Shown here: piece by piece, positions 1-15,282 of the stretch | Position numbering within the stretch: position 1 is the first letter of the stretch | How the letters are laid out: each line of letters begins with the position of its first letter | Notes under the pieces: model-generated | What the model was told of the DNA's origin: nothing | The model's database searches: none | Seen by the model: the letters and a program-made list of their open reading frames with translations, nothing else | Origin: Thermoplasmatota archaeon | GTDB lineage: Archaea > Thermoplasmatota > Penumbrarchaeia > Penumbrarchaeales > Penumbrarchaeaceae | DNA: 15,282 bases | Assembly (NCBI GenBank): GCA_965234725.1 | Contig: CBDDUX010000037.1 | Coordinates: forward strand, 1 to 15,282 | Direction: 5' to 3' | Translations under genes and position numbers: made by a program

Positions 1-18
1 TGGACGAAGAAGGAAAAT
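1..18 (+). repeat. Partial copy (right-hand site only, cut by window edge) of the 69-bp intergenic cassette-boundary element
   Basis: tgga-c-gaagaa-ggaaaat matches the right end of the other copies (tgga-c-ggaaaa-ggaaatt at 5025-5042; tgga-c-gtaata-ggcaaaa at 10112-10129). Same orientation, 55 nt beyond the stop of the 1531-aa gene. Confidence 0.75.
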
Positions 19-22
19 CTGA

Positions 23-50
23 GCCTTCTTCTTCTCGGAGAGGAGGAGGC
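23..50 (+). other. Short stem-loop (possible terminator-like hairpin) next to the boundary element
   Basis: gccttcttctt (23-33) pairs with gaggaggaggc (40-50) in an 11-bp stem with 3 G-U pairs on the + strand. ccttcttc (24-31) is also the perfect complement of gaagaagg (6-13). Confidence 0.3.
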
Positions 51-73
51 GAGGACCAGTTTATTTGATTCCT

Positions 74-3000
74 TCATTCCATCGGTGGATTGTCATATTC
101 CATGAAATAATCTTCTTCGGAAGCTTCGTTGAATGATTGATCCAAATTTGAATCTGCGGGGCCGTAGAGATCCTCGTAGGTTGTGGCGGATTCCCTTATC
201 AGATCACCCACATCTTCTCCTTCGGTGATTTTTTCATTAGTTTCGTTTCCTTCATCATTCGCAGACGTTTTTCTCCTGGCAACAATGATCAAGGCGATGA
301 TAATGATCAATACCACGAGGATGACCAGGATCAGGACCGGGACTATCGGGAACTCATCTGCATTTTTTTCTCCTTCATCGATCGTACTCTCCTTCAACAG
401 AACGATTTCACCAAGATCCTTCTTATCCCCCATGATCACATCGATCTCTATGGTTGAATTATCGTATCCATCTTTATAGAAGATCAGCTTGTAATGACCG
501 TTCTCCAGAGACAGAAAGAAGTCTCCTGTTTGTCCGGTCTTCATCATCATCAATCCGTTTGCATAAACCTCGACATCTCTCAGGATGTTGGAATTTTCAT
601 CCACAAGTGTCCCTTTGACTTCGGCATATCCGATCGTTGTGAAGGTCCAGTTGAAAGGATCAAATGGAAGTCCGTCAATGTCGAAACCAGAGAAATTGAC
701 CCTGTATTGTGTGGATGGATCCAATGCCGAATCCGGAGCGAAAACAGCCTTGTTCCCGGAAATCGTGAGAGTTCCGTTTACTCCCTCGAGACGGAGATCC
801 AGGACCCTAATATTCTTCGACAGGACCACCTCTACCGATGAGTCCATTGGAACATTGTCCCCCTCGGGTGATATCGATACCAATGTGGCAATCTCTCCGG
901 TTAAGAATTCGATACGATCATGAGCCCAGTTGCCAGCAAGATCAACCGCCTTTATTCTGGTCTCATGTTTACCTGGATTGATATCCGAAATGGTTATGGT
1001 TCCAGTGTTGGGAATCAAGTAGAAATCTTCATCGTCGAGTGAGAAAAGAATTTCCATCAATCCAGATCCTGTTTCCGTCAGGTCCCAGTTGAAAGTAACC
1101 GCATCCTCCTCGATCAGGGTGCCTGGATCGGGAGAAGTGAAACGAATGAAAGGTCGATCGGTATCGCACTGGAATCCGAGTGCGGTCACGTTCTGATTTC
1201 CTGCATTATCAACACCCATGACTCTGAGTGTATGGTTTCCGGTTGAAATATCGTTGAAAGAGAAACTCGTTTTATTCCCCCAGTATTCCCAACCGCCGTA
1301 GTTGATGCTTATCATATAATATCCGATTCCTGTTATCGGATCCTCAGCAGACCAGTTTATTCCAACCGTCGTCCGGTTCGTTATAACTGCTTCCAGGTCC
1401 GACCAGATATCCAGGACAGGTGGTGTAGTATCTACGATGAAGGAGACCATCCTTGTCACAGGATTACTAACTTTATCGATTGCTTTGACTATAACATGAT
1501 GTATCCCGTCAGTCAGATTGACAAGAGTGTGAGAGTTAATCGAATCGGCCCTGACCCATTCTCCATCATCGAGTGAAATCCATGCCTCATAAAAACCTGT
1601 ACCATCATCCAGGACTTCCCATTCAAGCTTCACATCTGATCTGTTGAAGATGGTATTATTGACAGGATCCAGTTTATGGAAGAATGGTGATGTTCCATCT
1701 CCTATCAGATCAATGGACTCTGACAGCACACTCTCACCATATTGATTGAGCGCCGTAATCCTATAGGCATATCTCTTTTCATTGACGATGGTGGTATCAT
1801 TGAATGAGTCCATGCCACCTTCAACATCGAAAACCTGGGTCTCCTCCCCCTGGGAATCCCTGTATATCTTGAAACCCTCGATAGAATCAAGACGATTCCA
1901 TTCAGGTTCGTCCCATGAAACCGATACATTCCCGTTTCCGACCGTTCCCGAAATGTTGATCGGAGGACCTATCAGTCTGAAAGGATGATCGACAAGAGGA
2001 TAATTGTCATGATTGACCTCACCAGAAAGAGGGTAAGGCTCGTCAACAATTCCGTCATTGTTGAGATCAGGACCTGTCCAGTCGCTCCAGTAATTCCCAC
2101 GTAGATAACTGTTATTCCAGTAATCGGCATTGTTATCGCATCTTGCCTGGATATGGCTGGAATTGAATTCCTCTCCGGCTCCGTTGTTGTTTATGAAGAT
2201 ATTAGAATAGAACCAGGAAGTCGATTCATGATAGGGATTTCCGTCGGTTAAGATTGCATAACCTGGGCATTCGGCGAATAGATTATCATGAATTTCTTGT
2301 CTATTTATATGGCTTGGTCTCAGACCAGTTGACACATTGATGAAAATATTGTGATACACCTTGGTTTCAACGCCAGGGTAGGATACTCCAGTACCAGAGA
2401 GATTTCGCAAATCACAATTCCTGATGAATCCCCTTGATACTCCGCTGAAGCTGATTGCCTTTTTACCTCCTTTGAAAAAGCAATTATCCACATCAATGTT
2501 ATTGGTATGTTCGACATAAATAGATCTTTCTATACCAGTAAAGAAACAATCCAGAATCTTGACATTTTCAGGTTCATCGTTTCTTTCGCCAATTATAGTA
2601 ATCCCATTCTCGGAATTGTAGAAACAGCATTTCTCAATAAATAAATCCGGAGAGTATTCCAACAAGATACAAGTGGATGAATTGGAAAACCCACTGTCTG
2701 TTATTCTCATGGATCCGCAATTATATGTTCTTATACAACTGCCGGTATCTTTGAAACTCAGGTTGTGGATTTTCAAACCGGAAGATGAAAAGGCCTGTAT
2801 TGAGTGGGACCTGTTGGTAATGGTAAGATCCTCGATCCTGTAATTATTCACCTTGTTGATGATGATCTGTCCCCAGATCTCATCTTTTCCTATCACATGA
2901 TTATTACCCGATGTCATGAACAATACAGGTCTTCCGTCAAGTGAATTATTGGAGGGCAATATTATATCCAGGTCATCTGGAGAATCGATGATGAAAAGAA

Positions 3001-4669
3001 AATCACCCCCGATCAGTTGGTTGGAATAATAGCTTACTGAAAAACAATCCTCCTGATATACTCCGGTATCGGATCCAGAGATTCCGATATCGGATCCGGA
3101 GATAATTGTGTTGTCTACAATATAAATCTCATTATTATCTTCGAGTGAAACACCACCGTAAAAGGTTTCAATTCTATTTTTTCTTATAATTATAGAATTA
3201 CTGTCTTCAATATTCACAGAAGATGATGAGGATATATTGCATCCTTCAATACGGATTTGTTCACAATTTCTGATATCAAAAGGAACGTATCCTGTTTTTA
3301 TATTGAGTCCTATAAAAACACTGTCAACAGAGGATCTCATTTCAAATATCTTACTTCCATGATTATCAGTTATGTTGCAGGAAATAAACCTGAGTTCACT
3401 GGAATCGATTATATTGAAACAATCATATGAACCATTCTTGAAATTGCAATCCTTGACATATAGTTCTTCAGAATTCTCTACTTCAATGAAACTTGCCTGG
3501 AGGTCTTCCATTGTACAATTCTCTATTGATATCCTTGAACAGTCATACATTGAAATTCCAAAAAAGCTATTAGAAATTGACAGGTTATCAATAAGAATAT
3601 CATTTGAATAAATCAACTCAAAACATTCAGGATACGCTTCGTGGTCATTTCCTGAAATTCTCAATGAGGACATGTTGATCATTATCAATTGAGAATGATT
3701 CGGATTCTCTTTGAATGGTGTGAGGTTGTTGTCCATTAATACCAATATCGGAAGACCGTCAATTGTGTTGTTTAGTGGGATTTCCATGGTATAAATGTCC
3801 GATAGCTCTCCACCGACCTTCAAGCCCCATCTGCCAAGTTGGTTGTCATACGTAGTTACGTTTCTTGATGAGGAAATGTCTATATGTCCACCTGATCCGC
3901 TCATATTGTTACTCGAAATAAGAACTTGTTCACAATTGTATATTGAGAATCCATCCGGATATGAAGGCCCTCTGCTGTTATTTTTTATGACAATATCAAC
4001 ACAAGATGTGAATCTGAATAAGTTAGTATCATTCAATTTATTGCTTAGGATGTTGATATCATTAGATTTTTGAACCTGAAGGTTGTAATCATCCTGCCTA
4101 TTATTAAAAAAAGTAAAATTGATGCAGTTTACAACGTAGGTTCTGTCCTTTAAATTGGATTTTGATATTGAAAGGTTTTTACAACCATTGAAATAACCCC
4201 AATAGTCAAAACCATGACCATGGGTCTTGATATCGGTCAATTTAATACAAGAACATTGATATGCATAGATTAATTGACCCCATTCTTGTATGGAAAGGTT
4301 TTCCATGATGATATTACTGACATTTTTGAGATGTATACTGGTTTCATGAAGATAGGATTGCGAAGAACAATTCTTCATGTTAATATGAAGGTTTACGTTT
4401 TTTATTTCAAGAGCATACCCTTCATATCTTGGAAAAACCAATCCCTCGATTATATAAGGGTTGGATTCGGTTCCGTTTCCCGGCCATCCGTTGGATGAGG
4501 ATTGGTTTACAAGATCACTATTGCCATCGATCAGAATTGGAGTGAACTCAAGAGGAGGATCATCTCGCAGAATGGTTTCATTTTGGATTTCTCTTCCCTC
4601 TCCATCCATTGGAAGGTTTATCATTGATACAATCAGAACAATGATTACAACTATCTGCTTCAAATTCAC
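74..4669 (-). CDS. Large secreted, membrane-anchored surface protein: NosD/CASH-like right-handed parallel beta-helix repeats, FN3, about 3 Ig-like domains, Big_5/SbsA-like Ig, carboxypeptidase-regulatory-like domain, C-terminal TM and acidic tail (1531 aa)
   Basis: N-terminal signal peptide (KQIVVIIVLIVSMI). PILIDGN..GWPGNGTESNPYIIEGL cap, many I.I.N..I beta-helix turns and GNYWSDWTGPDLNNDGIVDEPY..D.YPL typical of archaeal NosD-like proteins. FN3 motif (VSWDEP..GFKIYRD..YAYRITALNQYGES), repeated DTTPP/D.AGN Ig units, TM IVPVLILVILVVLIIIIALIIVA followed by RRK. GTG start. Domains recognised by eye. Confidence 0.9.
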   Translation of the reverse strand: MNLKQIVVIIVLIVSMINLPMDGEGREIQNETILRDDPPLEFTPILIDGNSDLVNQSSSNGWPGNGTESNPYIIEGLVFPRYEGYALEIKNVNLHINMKNCSSQSYLHETSIHLKNVSNIIMENLSIQEWGQLIYAYQCSCIKLTDIKTHGHGFDYWGYFNGCKNLSISKSNLKDRTYVVNCINFTFFNNRQDDYNLQVQKSNDINILSNKLNDTNLFRFTSCVDIVIKNNSRGPSYPDGFSIYNCEQVLISSNNMSGSGGHIDISSSRNVTTYDNQLGRWGLKVGGELSDIYTMEIPLNNTIDGLPILVLMDNNLTPFKENPNHSQLIMINMSSLRISGNDHEAYPECFELIYSNDILIDNLSISNSFFGISMYDCSRISIENCTMEDLQASFIEVENSEELYVKDCNFKNGSYDCFNIIDSSELRFISCNITDNHGSKIFEMRSSVDSVFIGLNIKTGYVPFDIRNCEQIRIEGCNISSSSSVNIEDSNSIIIRKNRIETFYGGVSLEDNNEIYIVDNTIISGSDIGISGSDTGVYQEDCFSVSYYSNQLIGGDFLFIIDSPDDLDIILPSNNSLDGRPVLFMTSGNNHVIGKDEIWGQIIINKVNNYRIEDLTITNRSHSIQAFSSSGLKIHNLSFKDTGSCIRTYNCGSMRITDSGFSNSSTCILLEYSPDLFIEKCCFYNSENGITIIGERNDEPENVKILDCFFTGIERSIYVEHTNNIDVDNCFFKGGKKAISFSGVSRGFIRNCDLRNLSGTGVSYPGVETKVYHNIFINVSTGLRPSHINRQEIHDNLFAECPGYAILTDGNPYHESTSWFYSNIFINNNGAGEEFNSSHIQARCDNNADYWNNSYLRGNYWSDWTGPDLNNDGIVDEPYPLSGEVNHDNYPLVDHPFRLIGPPINISGTVGNGNVSVSWDEPEWNRLDSIEGFKIYRDSQGEETQVFDVEGGMDSFNDTTIVNEKRYAYRITALNQYGESVLSESIDLIGDGTSPFFHKLDPVNNTIFNRSDVKLEWEVLDDGTGFYEAWISLDDGEWVRADSINSHTLVNLTDGIHHVIVKAIDKVSNPVTRMVSFIVDTTPPVLDIWSDLEAVITNRTTVGINWSAEDPITGIGYYMISINYGGWEYWGNKTSFSFNDISTGNHTLRVMGVDNAGNQNVTALGFQCDTDRPFIRFTSPDPGTLIEEDAVTFNWDLTETGSGLMEILFSLDDEDFYLIPNTGTITISDINPGKHETRIKAVDLAGNWAHDRIEFLTGEIATLVSISPEGDNVPMDSSVEVVLSKNIRVLDLRLEGVNGTLTISGNKAVFAPDSALDPSTQYRVNFSGFDIDGLPFDPFNWTFTTIGYAEVKGTLVDENSNILRDVEVYANGLMMMKTGQTGDFFLSLENGHYKLIFYKDGYDNSTIEIDVIMGDKKDLGEIVLLKESTIDEGEKNADEFPIVPVLILVILVVLIIIIALIIVARRKTSANDEGNETNEKITEGEDVGDLIRESATTYEDLYGPADSNLDQSFNEASEEDYFMEYDNPPME

Positions 4670-4772
4670 TAACCCACTTCCAATATAGTCAGGATTACCC
4701 TCTTCCCTTCCGGGACTTTATCGAAATTGATTGTAGGAGTTGATAAAGATTATCTCTGTATGTGTAAATTGA

Positions 4773-4961
4773 TCACTCCCACTCAATGGTTCCGGGAGGT
4801 TTGGATGTGACATCTACAGCCACTCCATCCACTCCATCAAGGCTCATCAATTTCTCAACTATATCATCAAAGAATGCATCCGGAAGCTCAGATACCTCCG
4901 CAGTCATGGCCCTCCTGGACCAGACAGGTCTTATTAGTAATATCATCCGGACCAAGAACAC
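4773..4961 (-). pseudogene. guaA: Orphan 3' fragment of GMP synthase (GuaA/GuaAB C-terminal dimerisation domain)
   Basis: The translation ends LIRPVWSRRAMTAEVSELP...V.GVAVDVTSKPPGTIEWE*, the diagnostic GMP synthase C-terminus (R.V....MTA...D.TSKPP.TIEWE). Only about 60 codons are present. The upstream part is missing and the boundary element starts 12 nt further on. Confidence 0.88.
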
Positions 4962-4973
4962 TGAAAGATTCAG

Positions 4974-5042
4974 CTTTTCAACGAGAAAGGCAAAATCTAA
5001 ATGGTGAGAAGATGTTTCCTCAATTGGACGGAAAAGGAAATT
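4974..5042 (+). repeat. 69-bp cassette-boundary element, copy 1
   Basis: cttttcaa-c-gagaaa-ggcaaaa-tctaaatggtgagaagatgtttcctcaattgga-c-ggaaaa-ggaaatt. By hand count 52/69 identical to the 9132 copy and 50/69 to the 10061 copy, ungapped. Confidence 0.92.
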
Positions 5043-5123
5043 TCTTTTTATTCTATGGCAATTAGGTAGTTCAGAATAAATACCTTCAGTTATTATGATT
5101 ATTATTGATTTGACTATTTTTTT

Positions 5124-8100
5124 CTATCTGGAATGGATGATTTTCCCCTCCCTTCTCAGGGTAAAAAATGCCGCCATTGTAATAGATCCTGCAAGAATGG
5201 CAACAATGATCAGAATGGTCAGTATAATTACCAATGAATTACCAACCCTGTCACCCTTGATCTTATCTGTCTCGTTCCCTGAAGTAGTACTATTGTCCAG
5301 ATTATACCCCCTAATATTTTCATCATTTGTGATATCCTGGTTATTTAATGGAGAGAGCATCATATGGCACGGTGCAACATTCCTACCGTCGGTAAGATCC
5401 AAAAGTAGCATCCCTTCGTTCCCTGATAGCTGTAATACCTTTAGATGGATAAGATATGGATTCTTTGTATCCATTTCTACGAACCTCCATGATCCTTCAG
5501 ATATGTAGGCCGATGAGATCCATGCTTTCACTGATATTCCACCTTTCATGGCTGAGATAAGTATATGTTTAGTCGGTGTACTGTTCTCGAAAGATTCAAA
5601 TAAATCTATTCTGAACTCAAGTTCTGGTTCAATCCGCTCCTCATACTCGATTGGAATGACTCTGAGATAAACAGATTCAGAAGCCAGGATCTTTCCATTG
5701 AGGTCTATAAATACAGTGACCGTTGATTCCACCTGCGCAAAAGGTGCTGTGTAATTTATGGACCAGGCACCAGGGAATAACTCCTCAAAAGTGGAGAAAG
5801 AACCTCCAGCTTCATTGTCATTTATTTTGAGTACCATTCCACCTTCAAGCATTTTTTCGTTCAAGATGATGAACAATTGGGTGGATGAACCTTCGATGAT
5901 AGTCTTTGATCCGGCTCCAATTTGAAGTGCTGGTGGAAGAGGAACTTCTTGAGTATCTTCCTCCACATCATTGATAACCATGATATTGATGAACTCCTCC
6001 CAGAGAATGACTTTATCGATGATGGCCTTGAAAACAAGATCCTTCTCTCCATGATCACGCGGGCAGTATTTCGCCATCCAGATGGAATCTCCTGCTTTGA
6101 ACATCTCGATATTCGTATCCATATTATCAATATCGAACAATTCCAGTTCCAGGTTCTCCTCCTTGAAGTTCCCAACTACCTTTGCAGATATCGATACCAT
6201 TCCATCTATTGTTATCCTTGGTGGGAAAACCATGAGGTCAACATCGAATTCAATTTCTTCCTTATCAGGCAGCAACCGCTCATCAACGATCTCAACCATC
6301 TGATGTGAACTGACTGAAATACCTTTTATCTTGATCTCGGCTGTTAAAGTAACAGCTCCAAAATAGCCCTTGGGAACCGTCCATCGGGTAGAATATATCC
6401 CCAGAGAGTTCTCGGTGGTTTCAGTAAAGGTTCCAAGACCGTTGGTCGAATACCATTCTATCTCTGCATTCTCGAAGATACCATTCAGATCTACAGCGGT
6501 AGCAACCATGTCGATATATTGGCCCTCTGCAGCAATGTGTTTGCTGGCCGTTATCTCCATCCTAGCATCCACCGGGAACGAATAGATACGGGCCAATGTT
6601 ACAACAATTAGAGAATCACTCCCTCTCTGGTTCTTGCAAAGCCATGAGTTTGTGATAGCCCCCAATTCCTCGCTGATCTTCTGGACCTTGCTTGTGAAAC
6701 CATCGAAAAGGGTCAGTTCCAACGCATGTGTCCATGGGTTGCTGAAATAATTAGAACGGTCTGTCATCATGAAAAGTACATCATCCAGACCATCCGAATT
6801 CATGTCTTCAGATATGAAAGGATAGGAAATACCCCCAGATTGTTTCTCTGTGAGGAATTGATATCTGTTTTGAGATGGCTCCACCAGATAGATAGAATCC
6901 AAAGTCTCAATAAGAATTTCATCTTCAAAATTGTTGTTAGTGTCAAATCCACCGATTATCAATGAGGACTTGTTCTCCCACAGGATCTCTCCGGTTTCTT
7001 CATCATGTATGGTAATTTTCGAAAATAGTTTTTGAGAAGTATCTATATTTATATAGGAATCCCACCTGAGAAGTATCTCATGGTCTCCATCTCCATCGAA
7101 ATCGAAGTAGGATGCTTTTACTGGTTGGACCCATCTTGTTGAGGAAACATTGAGTATAGACCATTTTTCTGTACCAGTCTCTATATTGATGGAACTGATT
7201 TCATACAACCCATCCTGCAGTGTATAGAAAAATCCAGTAGGATAGTCATCTTCTTCCTCCATTATCATATTGACATATTTCATATCGGTCTCCCAATCAT
7301 ATGATATCATATCATCTTCGATCCTGGTAAGCCTGAAATCCGAACCTATGAAATTCAACACATAAAGTGAATCATCATCCATTATAGTCTCAAAATATCC
7401 ATAATCAAAGATGTCTCTTTGTTCCTTGAACAATTTCTCCCCTACTCCACCTACCCATGGATCCCAAATGTTAAACGTGGATTCGTATTTATCAACAAAG
7501 AAGACAAGATCACCGTTTTGAGAGGGAATCGTTCTTATCGATTCAAATGAGGAGTAAGTATAACCGGAATATGTGAATGATTGCAGTTCGCCTGATGTCA
7601 TATCCAGTACATTTAATTCATTAATCATTTCTACAAGAATATAATTATTGCCAAGAGGCCCCATCAACCTCTTGATTACATGATTATAACCGGACCACCC
7701 TTCGAGATGTGTAGACCAAAGGGTTATTCCATTCGACGGGTCCAATCTCTCGACAGTTGTGGTTGTTGCGTTATGATCAATGATGAAAATATCCTCTTCC
7801 ATATCATTATCTATGTCTGATAAAGATATCCATCTCCCAACATACTCTCCGGACCTCATGGTGGTCCTCTTTTCCCAGATAATACTTCCATCAACGGTGT
7901 CGATATAACATAAACGGGCAAGATCCTGGGTCCAATATCCACAAGATGTCAAAATTCTCTGGTATCTTGTGCCTTCATTATCGATCCCTGTGAATGTGGA
8001 ATAGTCTCTGAAGGTTGTCATCCAGTCTGCCCTGTAATTCCTTTTGAGTGAAAAATCCCCTTCAAGTTCTTCTAGTTTCACCCTGCCAGAAAAGAACATA

Positions 8101-8954
8101 CCAAGACTTTCTGTGTCAACAAATGATTTCAGACTGAAATCTATCTCATCAAGGTCACCTGAAGTCAAATGGCCTTCTGATTTCAGTTCCAGAGGCTCAA
8201 CTCCAGAAAGATCGAATGGAATATCTGGAGGTACTATCAAACCCAATTGGATCCTGCTTGTTCCATTGAGGATCGAGGATATCTCCAAGGGAAAGACCGG
8301 CTCGTCTGTTTCGAACTCATAGATCAACGGATCTATGGATGTCTGGACAGTTCCAATGGGAAACCTGTCAAGAGCAAAATAGGGAAATCCCCTGGCGACA
8401 TAATTTTCAATTACACCCTCTAGTTTCTCTGGCCATACTTCTATCTCCATGTCCAATCTGTCAAGCATATCATTGATACCGGTTTTCAGATCCGCTACAG
8501 AATTGACTTTAATCACCAGTACATCATGGACTCCCAACGATTCTTCAAGGATTATCGAGATACCGTCATCAGGACCTCCTGCACCATTACTTTGTTCACC
8601 ACTATCACCAGTCCTGTAGTCCCAACTGGCATCATGTTTGAGTCGATCTTCGAAAACATTGGTTATGTTACTGAATATGGTTGCATTTCCCAATGATACA
8701 TCTGGTTCCGATGGAAAGGGTACGAAATGGATACCTTCTGTTTCTCCCGTTCCCCAAATATTGATTGACAGATATAATCGTTCGATATTACCATTCCAGC
8801 ATACAATTGCATTCTGTCCTGGTTCATAGACTTGAAAATCTACAACTGGAATATAACATCCATCACCCTTAGTATTCAGTGGCAAATGTAATATCATCAG
8901 CAGCCCAACAAAACAGGTTATTAGGATGCTAACTCTTCTCCTCAATTTCATCAA
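5124..8954 (-). CDS. Secreted, membrane-anchored protein: N-terminal DUF2330-like domain, PQQ/FG-GAP-like beta-propeller, Ig-like stalk, C-terminal TM (1276 aa; start may be the ATG at 8951)
   Basis: Signal peptide (KLRRRVSILITCFVGLLMIL). DUF2330-like motifs (DGCYIP..QNAIVCWNG..ERLYLSI..FVPFPSEP; YVARGFPYFALD; PLIYEFETDEPVFPLEISS). PQQ-type G..lW repeats (GSIIWEK, GITLWST, GTEKWS, GEILWEN) and Ca-loop motifs (DIDNDMEEDI, DFDGDGDHEI, DMNSDGLDDV). TM near the C-terminus. GGAGG upstream. Confidence 0.88.
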   Translation of the reverse strand: MMKLRRRVSILITCFVGLLMILHLPLNTKGDGCYIPVVDFQVYEPGQNAIVCWNGNIERLYLSINIWGTGETEGIHFVPFPSEPDVSLGNATIFSNITNVFEDRLKHDASWDYRTGDSGEQSNGAGGPDDGISIILEESLGVHDVLVIKVNSVADLKTGINDMLDRLDMEIEVWPEKLEGVIENYVARGFPYFALDRFPIGTVQTSIDPLIYEFETDEPVFPLEISSILNGTSRIQLGLIVPPDIPFDLSGVEPLELKSEGHLTSGDLDEIDFSLKSFVDTESLGMFFSGRVKLEELEGDFSLKRNYRADWMTTFRDYSTFTGIDNEGTRYQRILTSCGYWTQDLARLCYIDTVDGSIIWEKRTTMRSGEYVGRWISLSDIDNDMEEDIFIIDHNATTTTVERLDPSNGITLWSTHLEGWSGYNHVIKRLMGPLGNNYILVEMINELNVLDMTSGELQSFTYSGYTYSSFESIRTIPSQNGDLVFFVDKYESTFNIWDPWVGGVGEKLFKEQRDIFDYGYFETIMDDDSLYVLNFIGSDFRLTRIEDDMISYDWETDMKYVNMIMEEEDDYPTGFFYTLQDGLYEISSINIETGTEKWSILNVSSTRWVQPVKASYFDFDGDGDHEILLRWDSYINIDTSQKLFSKITIHDEETGEILWENKSSLIIGGFDTNNNFEDEILIETLDSIYLVEPSQNRYQFLTEKQSGGISYPFISEDMNSDGLDDVLFMMTDRSNYFSNPWTHALELTLFDGFTSKVQKISEELGAITNSWLCKNQRGSDSLIVVTLARIYSFPVDARMEITASKHIAAEGQYIDMVATAVDLNGIFENAEIEWYSTNGLGTFTETTENSLGIYSTRWTVPKGYFGAVTLTAEIKIKGISVSSHQMVEIVDERLLPDKEEIEFDVDLMVFPPRITIDGMVSISAKVVGNFKEENLELELFDIDNMDTNIEMFKAGDSIWMAKYCPRDHGEKDLVFKAIIDKVILWEEFINIMVINDVEEDTQEVPLPPALQIGAGSKTIIEGSSTQLFIILNEKMLEGGMVLKINDNEAGGSFSTFEELFPGAWSINYTAPFAQVESTVTVFIDLNGKILASESVYLRVIPIEYEERIEPELEFRIDLFESFENSTPTKHILISAMKGGISVKAWISSAYISEGSWRFVEMDTKNPYLIHLKVLQLSGNEGMLLLDLTDGRNVAPCHMMLSPLNNQDITNDENIRGYNLDNSTTSGNETDKIKGDRVGNSLVIILTILIIVAILAGSITMAAFFTLRREGKIIHSR

Positions 8955-8961
8955 GAAATTG

Positions 8962-9002
8962 CCTCCTTCTATTAAATGAGGTTATTTCTTCCCATAAAAA
9001 GG
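8962..9002 (-). promoter_or_regulatory. Candidate archaeal TATA box and Shine-Dalgarno for the 1276-aa gene
   Basis: The minus strand reads cc-TTTTTAT-ggg (9002-8991) and then aaGGAGG (8968-8962), which ends 7 nt before TTG 8954 and 10 nt before ATG 8951. Confidence 0.55.
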
Positions 9003-9040
9003 TTGTAGAACATGAGCTGAACAAGAATTGTTTTTCGTTG

Positions 9041-9166
9041 ATGAGTGAAATACTATCAAGTGAAGCAATAATTGTTGCATTGCTCATCACTTTACCCACT
9101 TCAGTTCTATCATTCGTTAACACGCATTCCTCTTCTCGCCGAGTACGGCAAAATCTAAATGGTTAG
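9041..9166 (+). pseudogene. Possible truncated 5' end (signal-peptide-like) of a divergent gene, cut by the boundary element
   Basis: ATG 9041 gives MSEILSSEAIIVALLITLPTSVLSFVNTHSSS, then runs into the repeat and stops inside it (TAG 9164-9166). It has a hydrophobic stretch, but is short and has no recognisable domain. Confidence 0.25.
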
Positions 9167-9200
9167 AAGATGTTTTCCAAAGTGGTCGTAATTAGTAAAT
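9132..9200 (+). repeat. 69-bp cassette-boundary element, copy 2
   Basis: cttctcgc-c-gagtac-ggcaaaa-tctaaatggttagaagatgttttccaaagtggt-c-gtaatt-agtaaat. Ungapped alignment with the other copies and the same 47-bp CG-to-CG spacing. Confidence 0.92.
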
Positions 9201-9207
9201 AGGAAGA

Positions 9208-10020
9208 TTGCAAATGATGAAAAAAGTACCTATAATAATCACTTCACTTATTCTAATTTCAATAGGTATATCTGGTTGTATGGATTTAAAAAGGAATGAT
9301 CAAAAACAAGATCCAAATGAGAACGGTGATAATAATATTCTGAATACAGATGAAGCTGAACCAGATATTGTCAGTTCTATTGACCATAAAAAAACTGAAA
9401 CAAATAGTGATTTCAATCCTGTCATTATTGTGAATAATGATGATATCAGAACACATACAACCTATGAGTTTTCAATTGATGATACACCCAATAACTCCAA
9501 TATTACTTGGGATTTTGATGATGGGATTATCTTATATGGAAGAAATGTTAGTCATCGCTATACAGTCTCTGATTATTACACGATCGAGGTAAAAATTACT
9601 TGGGAATCATCTTCAGCGGAAAGTGAATTGTCTGTAGATGTAAGAAATGCTGATACTGTAACAGGTCTTGTTGCGGATATAAATCGAATTATTGTTGGAT
9701 ATAGTGGTTTTGGACTTGGTGCAGAGATCCAGAAGGGAATAACAATCCCAGAAAGTGATGTTTACTTGAATTTATCACAATTAACCTGTGATCTGTCAGT
9801 AACAATAGGGTTGTTTGATAATGAAAGTAATGAAATAATAATCTTAATTACTGATTCTATAATAGGTCAAAAATTGACTTTAAATAAATATTGGCATATT
9901 ACTGGGGATATGATTGAACCATTTGATGAATTCAGGCCTATGTTCCTTAACTTGAGGATTAATTGTGATGATTATGTTGGACACGCAATTTGTGAGTTTA
10001 CAATAATACTCACATATTAA
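9208..10020 (+). CDS. PKD-domain lipoprotein (270 aa; true start probably ATG 9214 or 9217)
   Basis: MMKKVPIIITSLILISIGISG-C lipobox, N/D/Q-rich linker, and the PKD signature ITWDFDDG....GRNVSHRY.....YTIEVKIT. AT-rich (20-37% GC in three 60-nt samples). Confidence 0.85.
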   Translation: MQMMKKVPIIITSLILISIGISGCMDLKRNDQKQDPNENGDNNILNTDEAEPDIVSSIDHKKTETNSDFNPVIIVNNDDIRTHTTYEFSIDDTPNNSNITWDFDDGIILYGRNVSHRYTVSDYYTIEVKITWESSSAESELSVDVRNADTVTGLVADINRIIVGYSGFGLGAEIQKGITIPESDVYLNLSQLTCDLSVTIGLFDNESNEIIILITDSIIGQKLTLNKYWHITGDMIEPFDEFRPMFLNLRINCDDYVGHAICEFTIILTY

Positions 10021-10060
10021 TCCGATCAATGAAGTTTATCTTTGTGGAATATTGTTGCCC

Positions 10061-10129
10061 CCTTTCGCCGAAGAAGGCAAAATTCATATGTTGAGAAAGT
10101 GATTCCCCAAATGGACGTAATAGGCAAAA
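10061..10129 (+). repeat. 69-bp cassette-boundary element, copy 3
   Basis: cctttcgc-c-gaagaa-ggcaaaa-ttcatatgttgagaaagtgattccccaaatgga-c-gtaata-ggcaaaa. It lies between two convergent genes and is 48/69 identical to copy 2. Confidence 0.92.
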
Positions 10130-10149: not shown

Positions 10150-13100
10150 TCATTCTTGTCCTTCTAGGTCCTCGATCTGTTCATGAATATAGTCTTTCAA
10201 CTCTGAAGTAGTCATTCCTTCTTCATTCTTTTCAGGAGCAGGAACGCCATAGAGGTCCTCATATGACGGAGTATTGTCTTCTTTCTCTTTTTCAAGAGCA
10301 GCTCTTTCTTCTTCACCACGTTTGATAGCAGCTTCATCCATTTGCTTTTTCTTTTTTATAAAGAAGAAGATTCCAAGAGCAAGAAGGATGACGACTATTA
10401 CCACGATGATTAATATCAGGAACAATGAAGATGATGAACTCTCTCCTTCGCCCACTTCTATATCGAAGGTTGCAGTATTTGTTTCAATTCCATCTGAAAC
10501 CTCCACAGTAACTGTATGGAGCATCACTTGGTTGTCTTTCGGTGTCCACCTTATCATGCCTGTTTCCTCATTGATCGTCATCCCATCCGGAGCTTCCACC
10601 AGAGAATATCTCAAATTGGGAAGGTCCTCCGTATCCTGATCTGTGCAGGAGATCTTGAATTTGAAATCAGTTCCAGCTGAGATCTTCTGGTCCTCAATGG
10701 TCTTGAATGTGGGTTTGTAGTTGACCCTGAATGACATCACTCCTGAAGTGCATAAACCGTCAGAACAACCGTCATTTGGGATAACTGTCCAGAAGTATGT
10801 TTTTCCTGGATCCAGATCAGAGAGCGTGATGTTTGTACCCTCGAATTCTTCTTCAAAGAGGGCTTCTTCTCGATATCCCTGGACAAATACCTCTGTTTGG
10901 TGAAGATAAATGTCGTAGGTAATTGATTCTCCTTCAGGATCTGTACCTTCCCAGCTGAGAATAGCACCGGTGGAAGCTCCTTTTTCACCATCTCCAGGAC
11001 CAATTAACTCCACATCCGGGGGTAGAGAAGCTAATACCGTGATAGTGAAGGTCCTATTGGCAAATACAAGTCCATCCCATGCTGATACAATTACTTCTAG
11101 TTTGAACGGAGCTTTATCGAAAATATGGATGTCAGCTGTCCAGTTTATTTGTCCGGTATCTTCATCAATTGTAATATCGGAATCCGGTGCGGATGAAACG
11201 GAATAATATGTTGTATCTCCATCATAATCCGTAGCGTTCACATCGAAGAGATATGTTTTTCCATGAACAATATTTATATTTTCAGGAAAATCTACCCAGG
11301 CAGGTCTATCATTGACGTTTAGAACCTCCAATGTGAAGTTATGGAAATCGAACTCATCCGAAAGGTCCCAGACTGAAACGTTTACGAAGTAGGACCCAAC
11401 ATCCATTGGTCCTGGATTTCCGGACAGTGTTCCCATTTCATAATCGATTGAAAGGAAGCCAGCATCGGTATGGAGTTTCCATTTGATCTCATCTCCGGAA
11501 TCGATTTCAAGAGCTTGATAATTCTTGAGGAATGGATCGTTTTGATAGACTGACAGGGTGTCATTTGTGATTATTATTGGAGGGTCGTTAACATTGATTA
11601 CCTTGATATCGAACTGTCTTGAATCCCAGCCTTCATTTCCGTCATGCACAGATACAGTGACTGTTACAATTCCCACATCATCATTTGTAGGTGTTCCGTT
11701 CATAATACCCGATAGATAATCCATTGTGAGCCATTCAGCATTCGATGAAAGATGGTAGGTTACATTGCCTTGTCCATCATCATTACAGTCGTAGTCCACT
11801 TCATAGTATTTTCCCTGGTTAATCTCAAGAAGATTCTCCCCAGTCAAGATCGGATTGGCATTCTCAACAGATATCAAGAACTTTTGCGAAGAGAAATGAC
11901 CGATATCGTCACTTAGGTTCAATGCTACAGACGTGATTCCCACATCTTCGTTTTCTGGAGTACCAGATAATATTAGAGTACCTGTATCGAATGATAACCA
12001 ATCTCCGATGATCTCAAATGTCCAGCTTGAAAAATCTGCCAAACCTATATTCGAATATTGAACAGAATATTCTTCGTCCTCATTTGCAATTCTTATTGGT
12101 TCTGTTGGTCCTATCTCCACCAGTTCACATACCATAACCTTCGCATTCTTTGTTGGGTCCTTTGCTGAGATCACAGAGATATTATCGAACATCTCGGTTG
12201 AGTTTGGAATAAAAAATTCATTCCGATAGTTGCCTGTGTGTAAACCAGTTTCTTTGAGCAGCATTAAAATTGGGGGTTGTATTGTTTTCTCAAAAGTAAG
12301 ATTGACAAAAGCATAGTCCCTTGTCAGAGGATTCTCATCCTGTCCTATCACCTCGATATGCAATGTTTCCTCCCGTTGTATCTTGTTGATCTCTTTACTA
12401 TGGGTGGAATCCCAGTATGTTTTTACGGAGTCTATTCTTGTGGGGCTGAAGGGTTTGTCGACATTGATATTCCTGTAAAAACTTGGGTCCCTGCAGGAAA
12501 CGACCTCAATATTTTCGAACCACACGAATGTTTCAGGTACCTGAAATTCTCCGCGGTATGCTCCCGTATTGATCCCTGTCTCATTGAGCAAAATTGGGAT
12601 CCGGAGTGGCATGCTGTATGTGGAGGAGATGTTCACCAGAGCAAAGTTCCGAGAAACCGGATTTGCATCGGTTCCGATAACCTCAATGTAGAAGGTATCT
12701 TCAAGGTCTGCTTTGTCCGCTTCAATTGTACATGCTGAATCATAGTAGGTCTTCAATGAGCTTATTGATGTGGGCCTGAATGGGTTATCAATGAAAAGGT
12801 GTGCAAACTTTGTGGGATCCTTTCTTGATGAGAAGTTCAAGGTATCGAGGTAAATCGTTCCTGGAGGAATGATGAAAAATCCCCTGTATATTCCAGTGTT
12901 GTTTCCCGTTTCGATATAAGCAACTCTTATCAAACCAACTGACCCTGGCCTGAATGTGATATTTACAATGGCAGTATCTTGATGGGAGGCATTGCTGTCG
13001 AGACCTTTAACCTCGATGTATATGGTGCTCCCGATATCAGCAACTGTCGCGGGTGTTGAGAATCCTGAGTCGGAGTAGAGATCGACCGAATAGACCTCTA

Positions 13101-14637
13101 ATGGTTCGGAATAACCAAGGCCTGATATCAGGTATGTCTGGCCCGCATCATACCCGCCCTCATCGTTATTATTAGCTCCTACGAGGATGTCGTCGTATCC
13201 GTCCCCGTTCACATCCCCCGCTCCTGAGACCGAATACCCTGAACCATCATCTGCAGCCTCGCCGATGAACGATGCATCCGCTGAGGATAGGTCCATGTCC
13301 ATGCTCCACCCCGTCGACCGACCCAGGACAAGATATGTCTGGCCCGCATTTGACCCACCCTCATCGTTATTATTAGCTCCTACGAGGATGTCGTCGTATC
13401 CGTCACCGTTCACGTCACCAGCTCCAGAGACAGACCACCCTGAACCATCACCTGCAGCCTCGCCGATGAACGACGCGTCCGATGAGGCCAGGTCCATATC
13501 CATGCTCCAACCGGTTGACCGGCCCAGGACAAGATATGTCTGGCCCGCACTTGACCCACCCTCATCATTGCCAAAAGCTCCGATCAGGATATCATCGTAT
13601 CCGTCCCCGTTCACATCTCCCGCGCCGGAGACAGATTGCCCTGAATTATCACTTGCAGCCTCGCCGATGAACGATGCATCCGCTGAGGATAGGTCCATGT
13701 CCATGCTCCACCCCGTCGACCGACCCAGGACAAGATATGTCTGGCCCGCATTTGACCCACCCTCATCGTTATTATTAGCTCCTACGAGGATGTCGTCGTA
13801 TCCGTCACCGTTCACGTCACCAGCTCCAGAGACAGACCACCCTGAACCATCACCTGCAGCCTCGCCGATGAACGACGCGTCCGATGAGGCCAGGTCCATA
13901 TCCATACTCCAACCGGTTGACCGGCCCAGGACAAGATATGTCTGGCCCGCATTTGACCCACCCTCATCATTGCCAAAAGCTCCGATCAGGATATCATCGT
14001 ATCCGTCCCCGTTCACATCTCCCGCTCCTGAGACCGAAACCCCTGAAAAATCACCTGCAGCCTCGCCGATGAACGACGCGTTCGATGAGGCCAGGTCCAT
14101 ATCCATGCTCCAACCGGTTGACCGGCCCAGGACAAGATATGTCTGGCCCGCATTTGACCCATCCTCATCGTTCTTATATGCTCCGATGAGGATGTCGTCG
14201 TATCCGTCACCGTTCACATCCCCCGCTCCTGAGATCGATCTCCCTGCCCAATCATCTGCAGCCTCGCCGATGAACGATGCATCCGCTGAGGATAGGTTCA
14301 TGTCCATGCTCCAACCAGTTGACCGGCCCAGGACAAGATATATCTGGCCCGCATTTGACCCACCCTCATCATTATTATATGCTCCGATGAGGATGTCATC
14401 GTATCCGTCCCCGTTCACATCTCCCGCTCCAGAGACAGACCACCCTGAACCATCACCTGCAGCCTCGCCGATGTACGTTGCCAACGAAGCATCGGAGATG
14501 TTCAGGTCCATCTCGAAATCAACAAACCCCCTTGTTTTCATTTGGGCAGTCACTTTGATGTCAATATTATCAATTAAAATAGAGAAAGATCCGATTATAA
14601 GAAGAATAGAAATAAGCGTTATTGTAGATTTATTCAT
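10150..14637 (-). CDS. Integrin-alpha-like FG-GAP seven-bladed propeller adhesin with three ETGxxTG repeats, cadherin-like/putative Ig domains, an FN3-like domain, C-terminal TM and charged tail (1495 aa)
   Basis: Signal peptide (KSTITLISILLIIGSFSILI). Seven SVSGAGDVNGDGYDDILIGA..AGQTYL units, three 110-aa repeats, several LSGTP.N.DVG..V...V.D / NVNDPP cadherin-like units, LSWEGTDPEG..YDIYL..LDPGKTYFWTV, and a TM followed by KKKK. Confidence 0.92.
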   Translation of the reverse strand: MNKSTITLISILLIIGSFSILIDNIDIKVTAQMKTRGFVDFEMDLNISDASLATYIGEAAGDGSGWSVSGAGDVNGDGYDDILIGAYNNDEGGSNAGQIYLVLGRSTGWSMDMNLSSADASFIGEAADDWAGRSISGAGDVNGDGYDDILIGAYKNDEDGSNAGQTYLVLGRSTGWSMDMDLASSNASFIGEAAGDFSGVSVSGAGDVNGDGYDDILIGAFGNDEGGSNAGQTYLVLGRSTGWSMDMDLASSDASFIGEAAGDGSGWSVSGAGDVNGDGYDDILVGANNNDEGGSNAGQTYLVLGRSTGWSMDMDLSSADASFIGEAASDNSGQSVSGAGDVNGDGYDDILIGAFGNDEGGSSAGQTYLVLGRSTGWSMDMDLASSDASFIGEAAGDGSGWSVSGAGDVNGDGYDDILVGANNNDEGGSNAGQTYLVLGRSTGWSMDMDLSSADASFIGEAADDGSGYSVSGAGDVNGDGYDDILVGANNNDEGGYDAGQTYLISGLGYSEPLEVYSVDLYSDSGFSTPATVADIGSTIYIEVKGLDSNASHQDTAIVNITFRPGSVGLIRVAYIETGNNTGIYRGFFIIPPGTIYLDTLNFSSRKDPTKFAHLFIDNPFRPTSISSLKTYYDSACTIEADKADLEDTFYIEVIGTDANPVSRNFALVNISSTYSMPLRIPILLNETGINTGAYRGEFQVPETFVWFENIEVVSCRDPSFYRNINVDKPFSPTRIDSVKTYWDSTHSKEINKIQREETLHIEVIGQDENPLTRDYAFVNLTFEKTIQPPILMLLKETGLHTGNYRNEFFIPNSTEMFDNISVISAKDPTKNAKVMVCELVEIGPTEPIRIANEDEEYSVQYSNIGLADFSSWTFEIIGDWLSFDTGTLILSGTPENEDVGITSVALNLSDDIGHFSSQKFLISVENANPILTGENLLEINQGKYYEVDYDCNDDGQGNVTYHLSSNAEWLTMDYLSGIMNGTPTNDDVGIVTVTVSVHDGNEGWDSRQFDIKVINVNDPPIIITNDTLSVYQNDPFLKNYQALEIDSGDEIKWKLHTDAGFLSIDYEMGTLSGNPGPMDVGSYFVNVSVWDLSDEFDFHNFTLEVLNVNDRPAWVDFPENINIVHGKTYLFDVNATDYDGDTTYYSVSSAPDSDITIDEDTGQINWTADIHIFDKAPFKLEVIVSAWDGLVFANRTFTITVLASLPPDVELIGPGDGEKGASTGAILSWEGTDPEGESITYDIYLHQTEVFVQGYREEALFEEEFEGTNITLSDLDPGKTYFWTVIPNDGCSDGLCTSGVMSFRVNYKPTFKTIEDQKISAGTDFKFKISCTDQDTEDLPNLRYSLVEAPDGMTINEETGMIRWTPKDNQVMLHTVTVEVSDGIETNTATFDIEVGEGESSSSSLFLILIIVVIVVILLALGIFFFIKKKKQMDEAAIKRGEEERAALEKEKEDNTPSYEDLYGVPAPEKNEEGMTTSELKDYIHEQIEDLEGQE
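12130..13110 (-). repeat. Three diverged 330-bp (110-aa) domain repeats with the motif IEV.G.D.N....D.A.VN....ETG..TG.YR
   Basis: IETGNNTGIYRG, NETGINTGAYRG and KETGLHTGNYRN occur at exactly 330-nt spacing (near 12901, 12571, 12241). Confidence 0.85.
13120..14481 (-). repeat. Intragenic tandem repeat: 7 x 201 bp (67 aa) FG-GAP units, including a near-identical 402-bp-period duplication
   Basis: The units recur every 201 nt. 13252-13623 and 13654-14025 differ at only 2 of 372 positions by eye comparison. Confidence 0.93.
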
Positions 14638-14825: not shown

Positions 14826-15044
14826 ATGCTAAAACTTATGGAAACTAAAAAGAGAAGCATATTAAAATCTATTACTTATAGGATTATTTGTATTATTTCA
14901 TTGTTATCTGTTACCTTATTATTGACCGGAAATTTTTCTCAATCTATCTTAATTACATTCGTGTTTCAATCAATACAGACTATTCTTTATTATTTACATG
15001 AAAGATTTTGGGTATACTATTTTCCCATAAAGAAAGAACATTAA
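14826..15044 (+). CDS. Small DUF2061-like membrane protein (start possibly ATG 14838)
   Basis: METKKRSILKSITYRII...two hydrophobic helices...YYLHERFW matches the DUF2061 pattern RS..K..TWR...YY.HER.W. Very AT-rich (23-27% GC in two 60-nt samples). Confidence 0.8.
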   Translation: MLKLMETKKRSILKSITYRIICIISLLSVTLLLTGNFSQSILITFVFQSIQTILYYLHERFWVYYFPIKKEH

Positions 15045-15282
15045 AAAAAAATTCTCGATCCCCCCAAAAAGAGGCATTTATTTATGGATGTTTTATTAAC
15101 ATCCTCAAGGGTTTTCTTATGATTATATGGGTCGTTTCCGACTTGCGCACGTTTTTCGCAAAAAAAATCACTTCATGAGATCTGGCTACAAGGAAAAAAA
15201 ATCATCTGTGTAACCCACTAATAGGACCATATGTCAAAAAAAGTGAAGAATCGGAATTTTCGAGTCCGATACAACCATGGTA

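Follow-up and report, generated by a model that had tools for sequence, protein, structure and literature searches.

What is the short repeat that separates, one by one, the surface-protein genes on a 15,282-bp contig of a Thermoplasmatota archaeon, and could it be the junction at which such genes are filed and exchanged? The contig (CBDDUX010000037.1, here C37; C-numbers denote contigs) was analysed at its complete length, which we call the window, and belongs to a metagenome-assembled genome (MAG) that is 97.65% complete (G000; a 3.54-Mb draft in 114 contigs with 45% GC). A reading of the letters of this window (henceforth the sequence-only reading) had described a 69-bp element that keeps one orientation between its genes, here termed A to D, and had proposed a site-specific recombination platform that stockpiles and shuffles surface-protein cassettes. 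We compared G000 with 40 relatives, giving a set of 41 Thermoplasmatota genomes in which G001-G004 are other species of the genus of G000 (G001 is 95% and G002 68% complete). The element proves to be assembled from ~30-nt units, for which our best explanation, held tentatively and a little short of an even chance, is that they are the junctions of a gene-cassette array recombining either site-specifically or by homologous recombination. We favour a cassette array because the layout of the sites, the unrelated cargo, the breaks at the units and one bounded exchanged cassette fit it.

Composition of the element

A repeat search of the window returned a single direct family, with all members on the + strand, at 4968-5033, 9126-9191 (79%) and 10055-10120 (71%). 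The three full copies align in MAFFT without gaps, with a mean column identity of 75% over 121 columns, and window positions 1-18 match the 3' half of the second unit (see below). The co-oriented copies of the sequence-only reading, three complete and one partial at 1-18, are thus borne out, as are the distances it gave between element and gene ends: 55 nt to the stop of gene A, 81-83 nt to the stop of gene B, 7-15 nt to the start of gene C and, for copy 3, 35-40 nt to the stop of gene C and 20-22 nt to the stop of gene D (Table 1). Chance does not explain the repeat: a hidden Markov model (HMM) built from the three copies found 14 matches at E<1e-5 on 9 contigs of G000, rising to 18 matches at E<0.01 after one iteration. 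A strict pattern for the unit matches 29 times in G000 versus once in the shuffled genome, and altogether there are ~35 sites on >20 contigs.

Alignment of 15-16 copies resolves the 69-bp element into two homologous ~30-nt units flanking a nearly invariant core, TAAATGGTGAGAAGATG. Unit 1 reads TTNCC-N6-TCGCCGAA-N3-GGCAAAATC and unit 2 TTTCC-N5-TGGACGAA-N3-GGCAAAAT. With the form of the arms taken from more distant copies, the unit can be written as TTGCC(G)-N14-16-(C)GGCAA, an inverted repeat of 26-30 nt that is imperfect and in which arms of 5-6 bp enclose an asymmetric centre of 14-16 nt with the conserved T[CG]G[AC]CGAA. Single units also occur without a partner in G000, and extra modules such as GAGAAGAGCAATTCTAAC can trail a unit; the functional site is the ~30-nt unit rather than the 69-bp dimer. 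Between the units, the core has ATG codons, a GGTGA resembling a Shine-Dalgarno sequence and a TATA-like, AT-rich stretch, and may thereby also furnish the gene downstream with expression signals.

As the sequence-only reading had maintained, this is not an attC or a dif site. By inspection of the consensus and the invariant columns, a 15-copy alignment is devoid of RYYYAAC/GTTRRRY boxes and has TTNCC...GGCAA arms instead; single-stranded DNA folds of the three window copies on both strands (z -1.82 to +0.48) are no better than those of shuffled sequences and have no end-to-end pairing. We accordingly rejected attC for the lack of R''/L''-L'/R' boxes and of a single-strand fold, and dif/pdif for arms of 5-6 bp around a 14-16-nt centre versus the 11-6-11 build, with neighbouring sites all in direct orientation. 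An Rfam scan of the window by E-value gave 0 matches at E<=1, and thus none of the strong matches to a known noncoding RNA that, according to the sequence-only reading, would have counted against its proposal. ARAGORN found no tRNA in the window, and the element has only 9-10-nt chance words in common with the 40 tRNA genes of G000. RNAalifold detected no consensus RNA structure in 16 copies (-2.5 on the + strand, 0 on the - strand). Coding by the whole element was rejected on both strands on account of stops and a 1-nt indel.

Arrays of co-oriented sites

Of 30 pairs of adjacent sites less than 10 kb apart, all 30 are co-oriented, and the genes within these arrays are in mixed orientation. 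This count takes in seven contigs of G000, four of G001, two of G004 and one each of G021, L099 and L034; the last two are contigs from metagenome_contigs and genome_contigs, respectively, which were found via pattern scan and carry the element in the same layout. Among pairs more than 10 kb apart co-orientation was seen in 1 of 3, with one pair, 25 kb apart on G004:C9, being opposed. G001 has arrays on four contigs, G004 a 7-site array in C5:1-14,000, and those of G000 are listed in Table 1. Co-oriented site-gene-site arrays, for which the sequence-only reading had called for a scan, recur on other contigs and in other species.

By hand tally, ~17 of 24 complete intervals contain exactly one gene, and the others two, for example RelE/CopG-like pairs. 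In the window the claim of one intact gene per interval holds for A to D; the interval of gene A additionally houses a guaA fragment and a maf stub. The genes filed between sites are unrelated to each other: BLASTP within arrays yielded no matches among genes A, B, C and D of C37, nor between any of the four genes tested on C68 or of the three on C17. Hence, tandem duplication of a gene along with its element, which we considered as the origin of the arrays, was rejected, and it does not account for the co-orientation, since the genes of an array are not paralogues.

Genes flanking the element are enriched in secreted and very large products. An N-terminal hydrophobic segment was found in 31 of 47 flanking genes versus 34% of 2498 open reading frames (ORFs), and a length of at least 700 aa in 22 of 47 versus a background of 15%. 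All four window genes encode surface-type domains (beta-helix/NosD, FG-GAP, PKD and He_PIG), as the sequence-only reading had recognised; its generalisation that the cargo consists of adhesins and surface proteins is right as to the enrichment and too narrow as to the range, with small membrane proteins and toxin-antitoxin-like pairs also occupying intervals.

Breaks of synteny at the units and an exchanged cassette

Gene order varies among the relatives. It breaks off at units or no more than a few nt from them, which agrees with what the sequence-only reading had predicted. These comparisons are to be read against a baseline identity of ~90% between G000 and G004 and of ~70% between G000 and G003 (guaA 73%, the next gene 71%, gene A 67%). 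One cassette clearly exceeds its baseline: C17:107-872 is identical to G003:C70 at 686 of 766 positions (89.6%, above the ~70% baseline), and its flanks are so at 29/60 and 25/60 (42-48%). The tract runs from CGGCAATTTTG, which is the 3' arm of the preceding unit, to ...ACGGCAA, which belongs to the first following unit and is again its 3' arm. A protein-based metagenome_contigs search for this cassette returned no relative. On G003:C70 it is the neighbour of the ortholog of gene C (71%), which has a unit ahead of its start codon and an element past its stop, with different neighbours; in G000 the two lie on different contigs.

Gene D is 94% identical to its ortholog on G004:C9, with the homology beginning at ~10119, in the GGCAA arm of copy 3. 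Beyond that arm G004 has a differently composed cluster of units followed by a HicB-like gene, where G000 has gene C. A paralogue of gene D on C17 is closely similar from the same GGCAA arm onward.

Gene A points to a block transferred from elsewhere. In G004 (88.5% identity) and G003 (67%) its orthologs are flanked by guaA and maf, without elements there, and in G002 and on G000:C2 guaA is directly followed by maf with no gene A between them. On C37 gene A is accompanied by the guaA' fragment, which is 92% identical to the intact guaA on G000 contig C2, and by the maf' stub; given these stubs beside it, a block from a guaA-gene A-maf locus now sits in the array, between copies 0 and 1. The end of the maf' stub is 5-9 nt past the GGAAA arm of copy 0. 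Gene A retains its conserved 100-nt upstream region, and copy 1 points away from it.

An ortholog of gene B was not detected in G001-G004; the C23 array and that at the end of C59 gave no BLAST match at E<=1e-15 in G001-G004 and G021, and are by this comparison lineage-specific; and the C101 copy and G004:C9 do not align outside the element.

Mobile elements inserted at the unit

Two kinds of mobile element home to the unit. One, a group II intron without an ORF (RF00029, 60.5 bits), is present as a full copy at G000:C68 12281-13040 and as fragments at C17 3642-3818, C17 9090-9266 and on C66, with a 177-nt piece being 99% identical to G003:C32. At 3 of 3 junctions its 5' end abuts CC-N5-T[CG]G[CA]CG in the 5' arm of the unit, antisense to the unit. 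Moreover, three IS110-family elements that are ~72% mutually identical (G000:C42 ~3600-4901, G003:C70 ~7097-8560 and G004:C1 ~15417-17858) all start directly after GTT[GT]CC of a unit, and G000:C13 (~60-100, - strand) carries the uninterrupted paralogous site of the IS110 insertion. This has parallels in the literature: attC and REP (repetitive extragenic palindromic) sequences are known targets of IS1111-family elements, IS110 relatives target REP sequences (PMC11187229), and group IIC-attC introns insert at attC (PMC3001079). These parallels show the unit to be a stable multi-copy landmark, and they fit a recombination site and a REP-like repeat alike.

Distribution

A census of the 41 genomes with a sequence-only covariance model (R1) detected the element in nine, G000 included (8 of 40 relatives), all of them of one family, f1. 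There are 18 matches in G000, 9 in G001, 8 in G004 and 1 in G003, with five further genomes of the family positive; G002, which is 68% complete, has 0, as do all 17 genomes searched outside family f1. In the wider collections, one search pattern found no match in genome_contigs, and a second found four records there and two in metagenome_contigs. A literature search that did not cover supplements retrieved no description matching this element.

Among sequencing runs the stretch is present only in a marine sediment metagenome, its probable source sample, and no RNA runs carrying it are listed. Many element matches in G000 lie less than ~100 nt from contig ends, and the assembly thus breaks at this repeat; the Logan unitigs of the source run likewise end at elements, with loose ends from other copies.

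The proposed cassette array and the points against it

If the units are cassette junctions, each interval would be an independently acquired module, usually with one secreted or giant surface-protein gene and sometimes with a toxin-antitoxin-like pair. Such modules would be gained, lost and exchanged between loci and species through recombination at the units, with the break falling at or beside the GGCAA arm. We infer recombination at the unit from the layout and the breaks, and whether a specific enzyme or homologous recombination acts is likewise a matter of interpretation: taken singly, a site-specific enzyme dedicated to the unit and homologous recombination of the general kind, acting between the repeats, are each doubtful, and to the same degree. 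The most specific form of the idea, which we also regard as rather doubtful, is an archaeal cassette platform in which the 26-30-nt unit is the site of a putative enzyme cutting at the GGCAA arm, an integron analogue that uses an unrelated site and is able to carry giant genes of 4-6 kb. Such a platform would capture, stockpile and exchange cassettes of surface proteins, membrane proteins and toxin-antitoxin systems within and between species of a Thermoplasmatota lineage living in sediment. As for the platform put forward by the sequence-only reading, the layout and the breaks at units speak for it; no enzyme was found, and homologous recombination would give the same layout.

Several results weigh against a cassette array. 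No tyrosine recombinase lies at an array end in G000, G001, G003, G004 or G021, all of which are fragmented MAGs, and neither a recombinase nor an HUH nuclease, for which the sequence-only reading had suggested looking at one end, was found at array ends. G000 has seven PF00589 matches, of which only two are on element-bearing contigs, 5-6 kb from sites; these two families were not found in G001, G003 and G004, and G001, with its 9 element matches, has PF00589 only as a 104-aa fragment. The integrases of C102 and C44 are present in G005 and G015 and not in G001-G004. An integrase-like family prototyped on C68 has five paralogues in G000 (C68 13787-15022, C55, C66, C56 and C97; 411-445 aa, 38-42% identical), of which only one reaches PF00589; none was found in G001-G004, and their carrier is probably a family of mobile elements that has gone unrecognised. 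Y1_Tnp (PF01797), the HUH transposase domain of RAYT (REP-associated tyrosine transposase)/Y1 enzymes, has 0 matches in G000. IS110 (PF01548) occurs in 13 of 41 genomes, including ones without the element. A serine recombinase of ~287 aa (PF00239; G000:C62 27551-27988 and relatives) is found, usually in single copy, in 23 of 41 genomes, again including element-free ones. Thus, no recombinase co-distributes with the element. Apart from its bearing on the element, this serine recombinase is unusually widespread for a resolvase-type gene in archaea.

The remaining points concern the breaks and the site itself. Breaks at a conserved motif are equally expected from homology-driven exchange, and islands of surface-protein genes are hypervariable anyway. 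Only one clearly above-baseline exchanged cassette was found. The end of guaA' is 31 nt ahead of unit 1 of copy 1, off any GGCAA arm, and the other end of the gene D homology, at 14543, falls inside the signal-peptide region, away from any element. The ortholog of C17:1247-3619 in G004 lies outside any array and has no elements; with this locus and that of gene A element-free in G004, the initial acquisition of units by these genes is unaccounted for. Pairing of the arms is weakly supported (14 Watson-Crick versus 19 other combinations among 33 distinct units). Lastly, no joint between elements, excision circle or empty site was seen in Logan contigs, which cannot reveal rare excision products.

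Alternative explanations

The alternative that survives best is possible though doubtful: the element could be a shared expression module, the promoter or 5' leader of a secreted-protein regulon (TATA-like AAAATCTAAAT, Shine-Dalgarno-like GGTGA and short upstream ORFs) that spreads with the 5' ends of genes, making the arrays islands of co-regulated genes. By hand tally, 32 of 48 elements have a co-directional gene on their 3' side, with its start usually 9-60 nt away; with about two-thirds of the elements thus just upstream of a co-directional start, an expression role is possible. In G001, L099 and L034 the element fills the entire spacer between co-directional small genes; the stretch from unit to ATG is nearly identical before orthologs in G000 and G003; and the core combines GGTGA with an in-frame ATG 4 nt later and a TAAATG stop-start overlap. 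A precedent is offered by archaeal viruses, in which long conserved regulatory sequences are reported to be common to unrelated genes (PMC11065993). Against this, 16 of 48 elements (hand tally), window copies 1 and 3 among them, point with their 3' side at the stop of a convergent gene, and the distance from unit to start spans 0 to >300 nt, at odds with the fixed orientation and spacing of a promoter or 5' leader. Further, the G004 orthologs of gene A and of C17:1247-3619 are without the element, gene A brought its own upstream region with copy 1 facing away, and many units have no start codon in the peptide frame (see below). The uniform co-orientation of sites regardless of the genes is also unexpected for promoters.

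An unlikely alternative is that the unit is a selfish repeat of the REP, BOX or MITE (miniature inverted-repeat transposable element) kind residing in the tolerant spacers of flexible islands, with the breakpoints being by-products of repeat-mediated rearrangement. Its modular build with variable unit number and extra modules, the many sites dispersed over contigs, the narrow taxonomic range within f1, the copy number varying among sister species, the imperfect, REP-like palindrome, the targeting of REP sequences by IS110 relatives (PMC11187229) and orthologous genes found both with and without elements are all consistent with this. The lack of any RAYT/Y1 transposase match in G000 argues against it, and together with the weak arm pairing it led us to reject membership in the REP/RAYT system. 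Nor did the species comparisons yield a clean pair of filled and empty sites for the unit or identify a target-site duplication, although terminal arms of 5-6 bp are present. Random insertion would not produce the observed local co-orientation, and the opposed pair on G004:C9 argues against a replichore-wide bias as its source. The strong enrichment beside genes for secreted and giant proteins and the regularity of one gene per interval likewise argue against such a repeat.

It is very improbable that the unit encodes or once encoded a peptide of 10-20 aa (P-x-[VILM]-[DA]-E-x-G-K-I), the element then being a tiny gene pair or decayed gene starts: most units leave the ...P-x-V-D-E-x-G-K-I frame open, synonymous or conservative substitutions account for some of the changes (GAC/GAT, GTG/GTA, GGC/GGA, D/E) and many copies in several genomes have an in-frame ATG or GTG after GGTGA or GGAG, but in many units a stop immediately precedes the frame, which is without a start codon, variable positions hold specific nucleotides (NAA, NTG, GNA) rather than making free use of synonymous codons, the length after the motif ranges from 0 to 18 residues, C68 and C23 have a variant with a 1-nt indel, and the peptides are too short for the protein tools used.

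Comparison with known systems

A cassette array of the kind we favour most closely recalls integrons and CALINs (clusters of attC sites lacking integron-integrases), whose defining layout, in which short co-oriented sites mostly enclose single ORFs, is present here. Further likenesses to both are the unrelated cargo, the toxin-antitoxin-like pairs, the many small genes of unassigned function and the very short spacers. As in CALINs, most arrays have no adjoining integrase, and the sites are parasitised by an IS110/IS1111-type element and a group II intron. There are also differences: the site is a unit of 26-30 nt or a 69-bp dimer versus the 55-140 nt of attC; it is without R''/L''-L'/R' boxes and a single-strand fold (z -1.8 to +0.5), and no IntI was found; the cargo includes giant genes of 4-6 kb, and about a third of it is inverted relative to the sites; and the element is, as known, restricted to one Thermoplasmatota family. 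Archaeal integrons described so far combine canonical attC sites with IntI, and CALINs are recorded in Archaea too (PMC9668308).

The arrays resemble pdif modules in their site-gene-site build and in the occurrence of discrete modules in different contexts. The pdif modules of Acinetobacter plasmids are bounded by 28-bp XerC/XerD sites of 11-6-11 build in alternating orientation, whereas the sites here all point one way and have arms of 5-6 bp and a 14-16-nt centre, with no co-occurring Xer-type enzyme (in G001, a fragment only). REP sequences and the BIMEs (bacterial interspersed mosaic elements) formed from them, pneumococcal BOX and Neisseria Correia elements are found genome-wide beside genes of any kind, and REPs come with RAYT transposases. 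Like the unit, these are modular imperfect palindromes of variable number that lie in spacers, can carry expression signals, promote rearrangements and serve as targets of the IS110 family; unlike it, they show neither strict local co-orientation nor one-gene arrays, and RAYT was not found here. In the vsa, vsp and vpma loci of Mycoplasma, which switch surface antigens, the sites are inversely oriented, sit within the 5' ends of genes and mediate inversion by a local Xer-like recombinase. These loci likewise group variable genes for surface proteins, each gene with its short conserved site; the sites described here are direct repeats outside genes, for which excision and integration rather than inversion would be expected.

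Other features of the window

The features of the window and the arrays of G000 are collected in Table 1.

Table 1. Features of the window (C37) and site arrays of G000
Feature	Location	Strand	Description
copy 0	1..20	+	3' half of unit (TGGACGAAGAAGGAAAATC), truncated by contig end; strict unit pattern match at C37:2
maf' stub	25..77 (approx.)	-	first ~17 codons of the Maf gene downstream of gene A in G004; from alignment with G004:C7 and G000:C2
gene A	74..4669	-	1531 aa, beta-helix/NosD/Big surface protein
guaA' fragment	4772..4936	-	165 nt, last 55 codons of GMP synthase, PF00958 1.9e-11
copy 1	4968..5041	+	unit 1, core (TAAATGGTGAGAAGATG), unit 2
gene B	5124..8954	-	1276 aa, DUF2330/FG-GAP surface protein
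copy 2	9126..9199	+	ends 7-15 nt ahead of the gene C start codon
gene C	9208..10020	+	270 aa, PKD lipoprotein-like
copy 3	10055..10128	+	lies between the convergent stops of genes C and D
gene D	10150..14637	-	1495 aa, FG-GAP/He_PIG surface protein
G000 array	C37	+	4 sites
G000 array	C68	-	4 sites; genes - + - +
G000 array	C17	+	4 sites
G000 arrays	C23, C81, C59, C102		2 sites each

The guaA-maf junction is polymorphic in the genus (G000:C2 52360-54200 versus G004:C7 and G003:C21): in G000 and G002 the two genes overlap at a tight junction, in G003 and G004 the 4.7-kb gene A separates them, and the N-terminus of Maf differs between the two states. In gene D, window positions 13130-14434 hold six tandem repeats of 201 nt (67 codons) that are 86-91% mutually identical and have 55% GC versus ~40% elsewhere in the gene; one metagenome contig skips 168 nt of them (14007-14176). 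The 5' ends that code for the signal peptides of gene D (14544-14637) and of C17:1247-3619 (1247-1292) are unrelated to those of the G004 orthologs, and the remainders of both genes are 88-94% identical to them; going by these alignments, it seems that both genes had their 5' ends swapped.

Another intergenic repeat, ~115-125 nt long, is found in six copies in G000 (window 15043-15176, C38:4644-4758, C54:2645-2759, C81:6038-6162, C8:3096-3199 and C33:5223-5286) and in several in G004. It has a conserved body together with a TATA-like GGCATTTATTTATGG and a T5 run, shows a metagenome word depth ~20x that of the remainder of the contig, and in C37 and C81 sits at the same array end in the same relative orientation. 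It has no Rfam match and could be a small RNA gene.

Implications

To our knowledge, no well-understood platform other than the integron files genes singly between co-oriented sites. Were the units confirmed as the junctions of a cassette array, they would constitute a second, unrelated site family with an integron-like architecture, meaning that cassette filing evolved more than once. The parasites of the unit are of interest in their own right: the fixed-point insertion of IS110 presents a natural archaeal target site for a recombinase of the bridge/seeker-RNA type, and the group II intron is one with a defined homing site in the unit. The units also account for MAG assemblies fragmenting at those positions. 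Even under homologous exchange, they mark where these genomes break and swap surface genes; and, if true, a cassette array would account for the diversification of the cell surface in wall-less sediment Thermoplasmatota, including their very large adhesin-like proteins.

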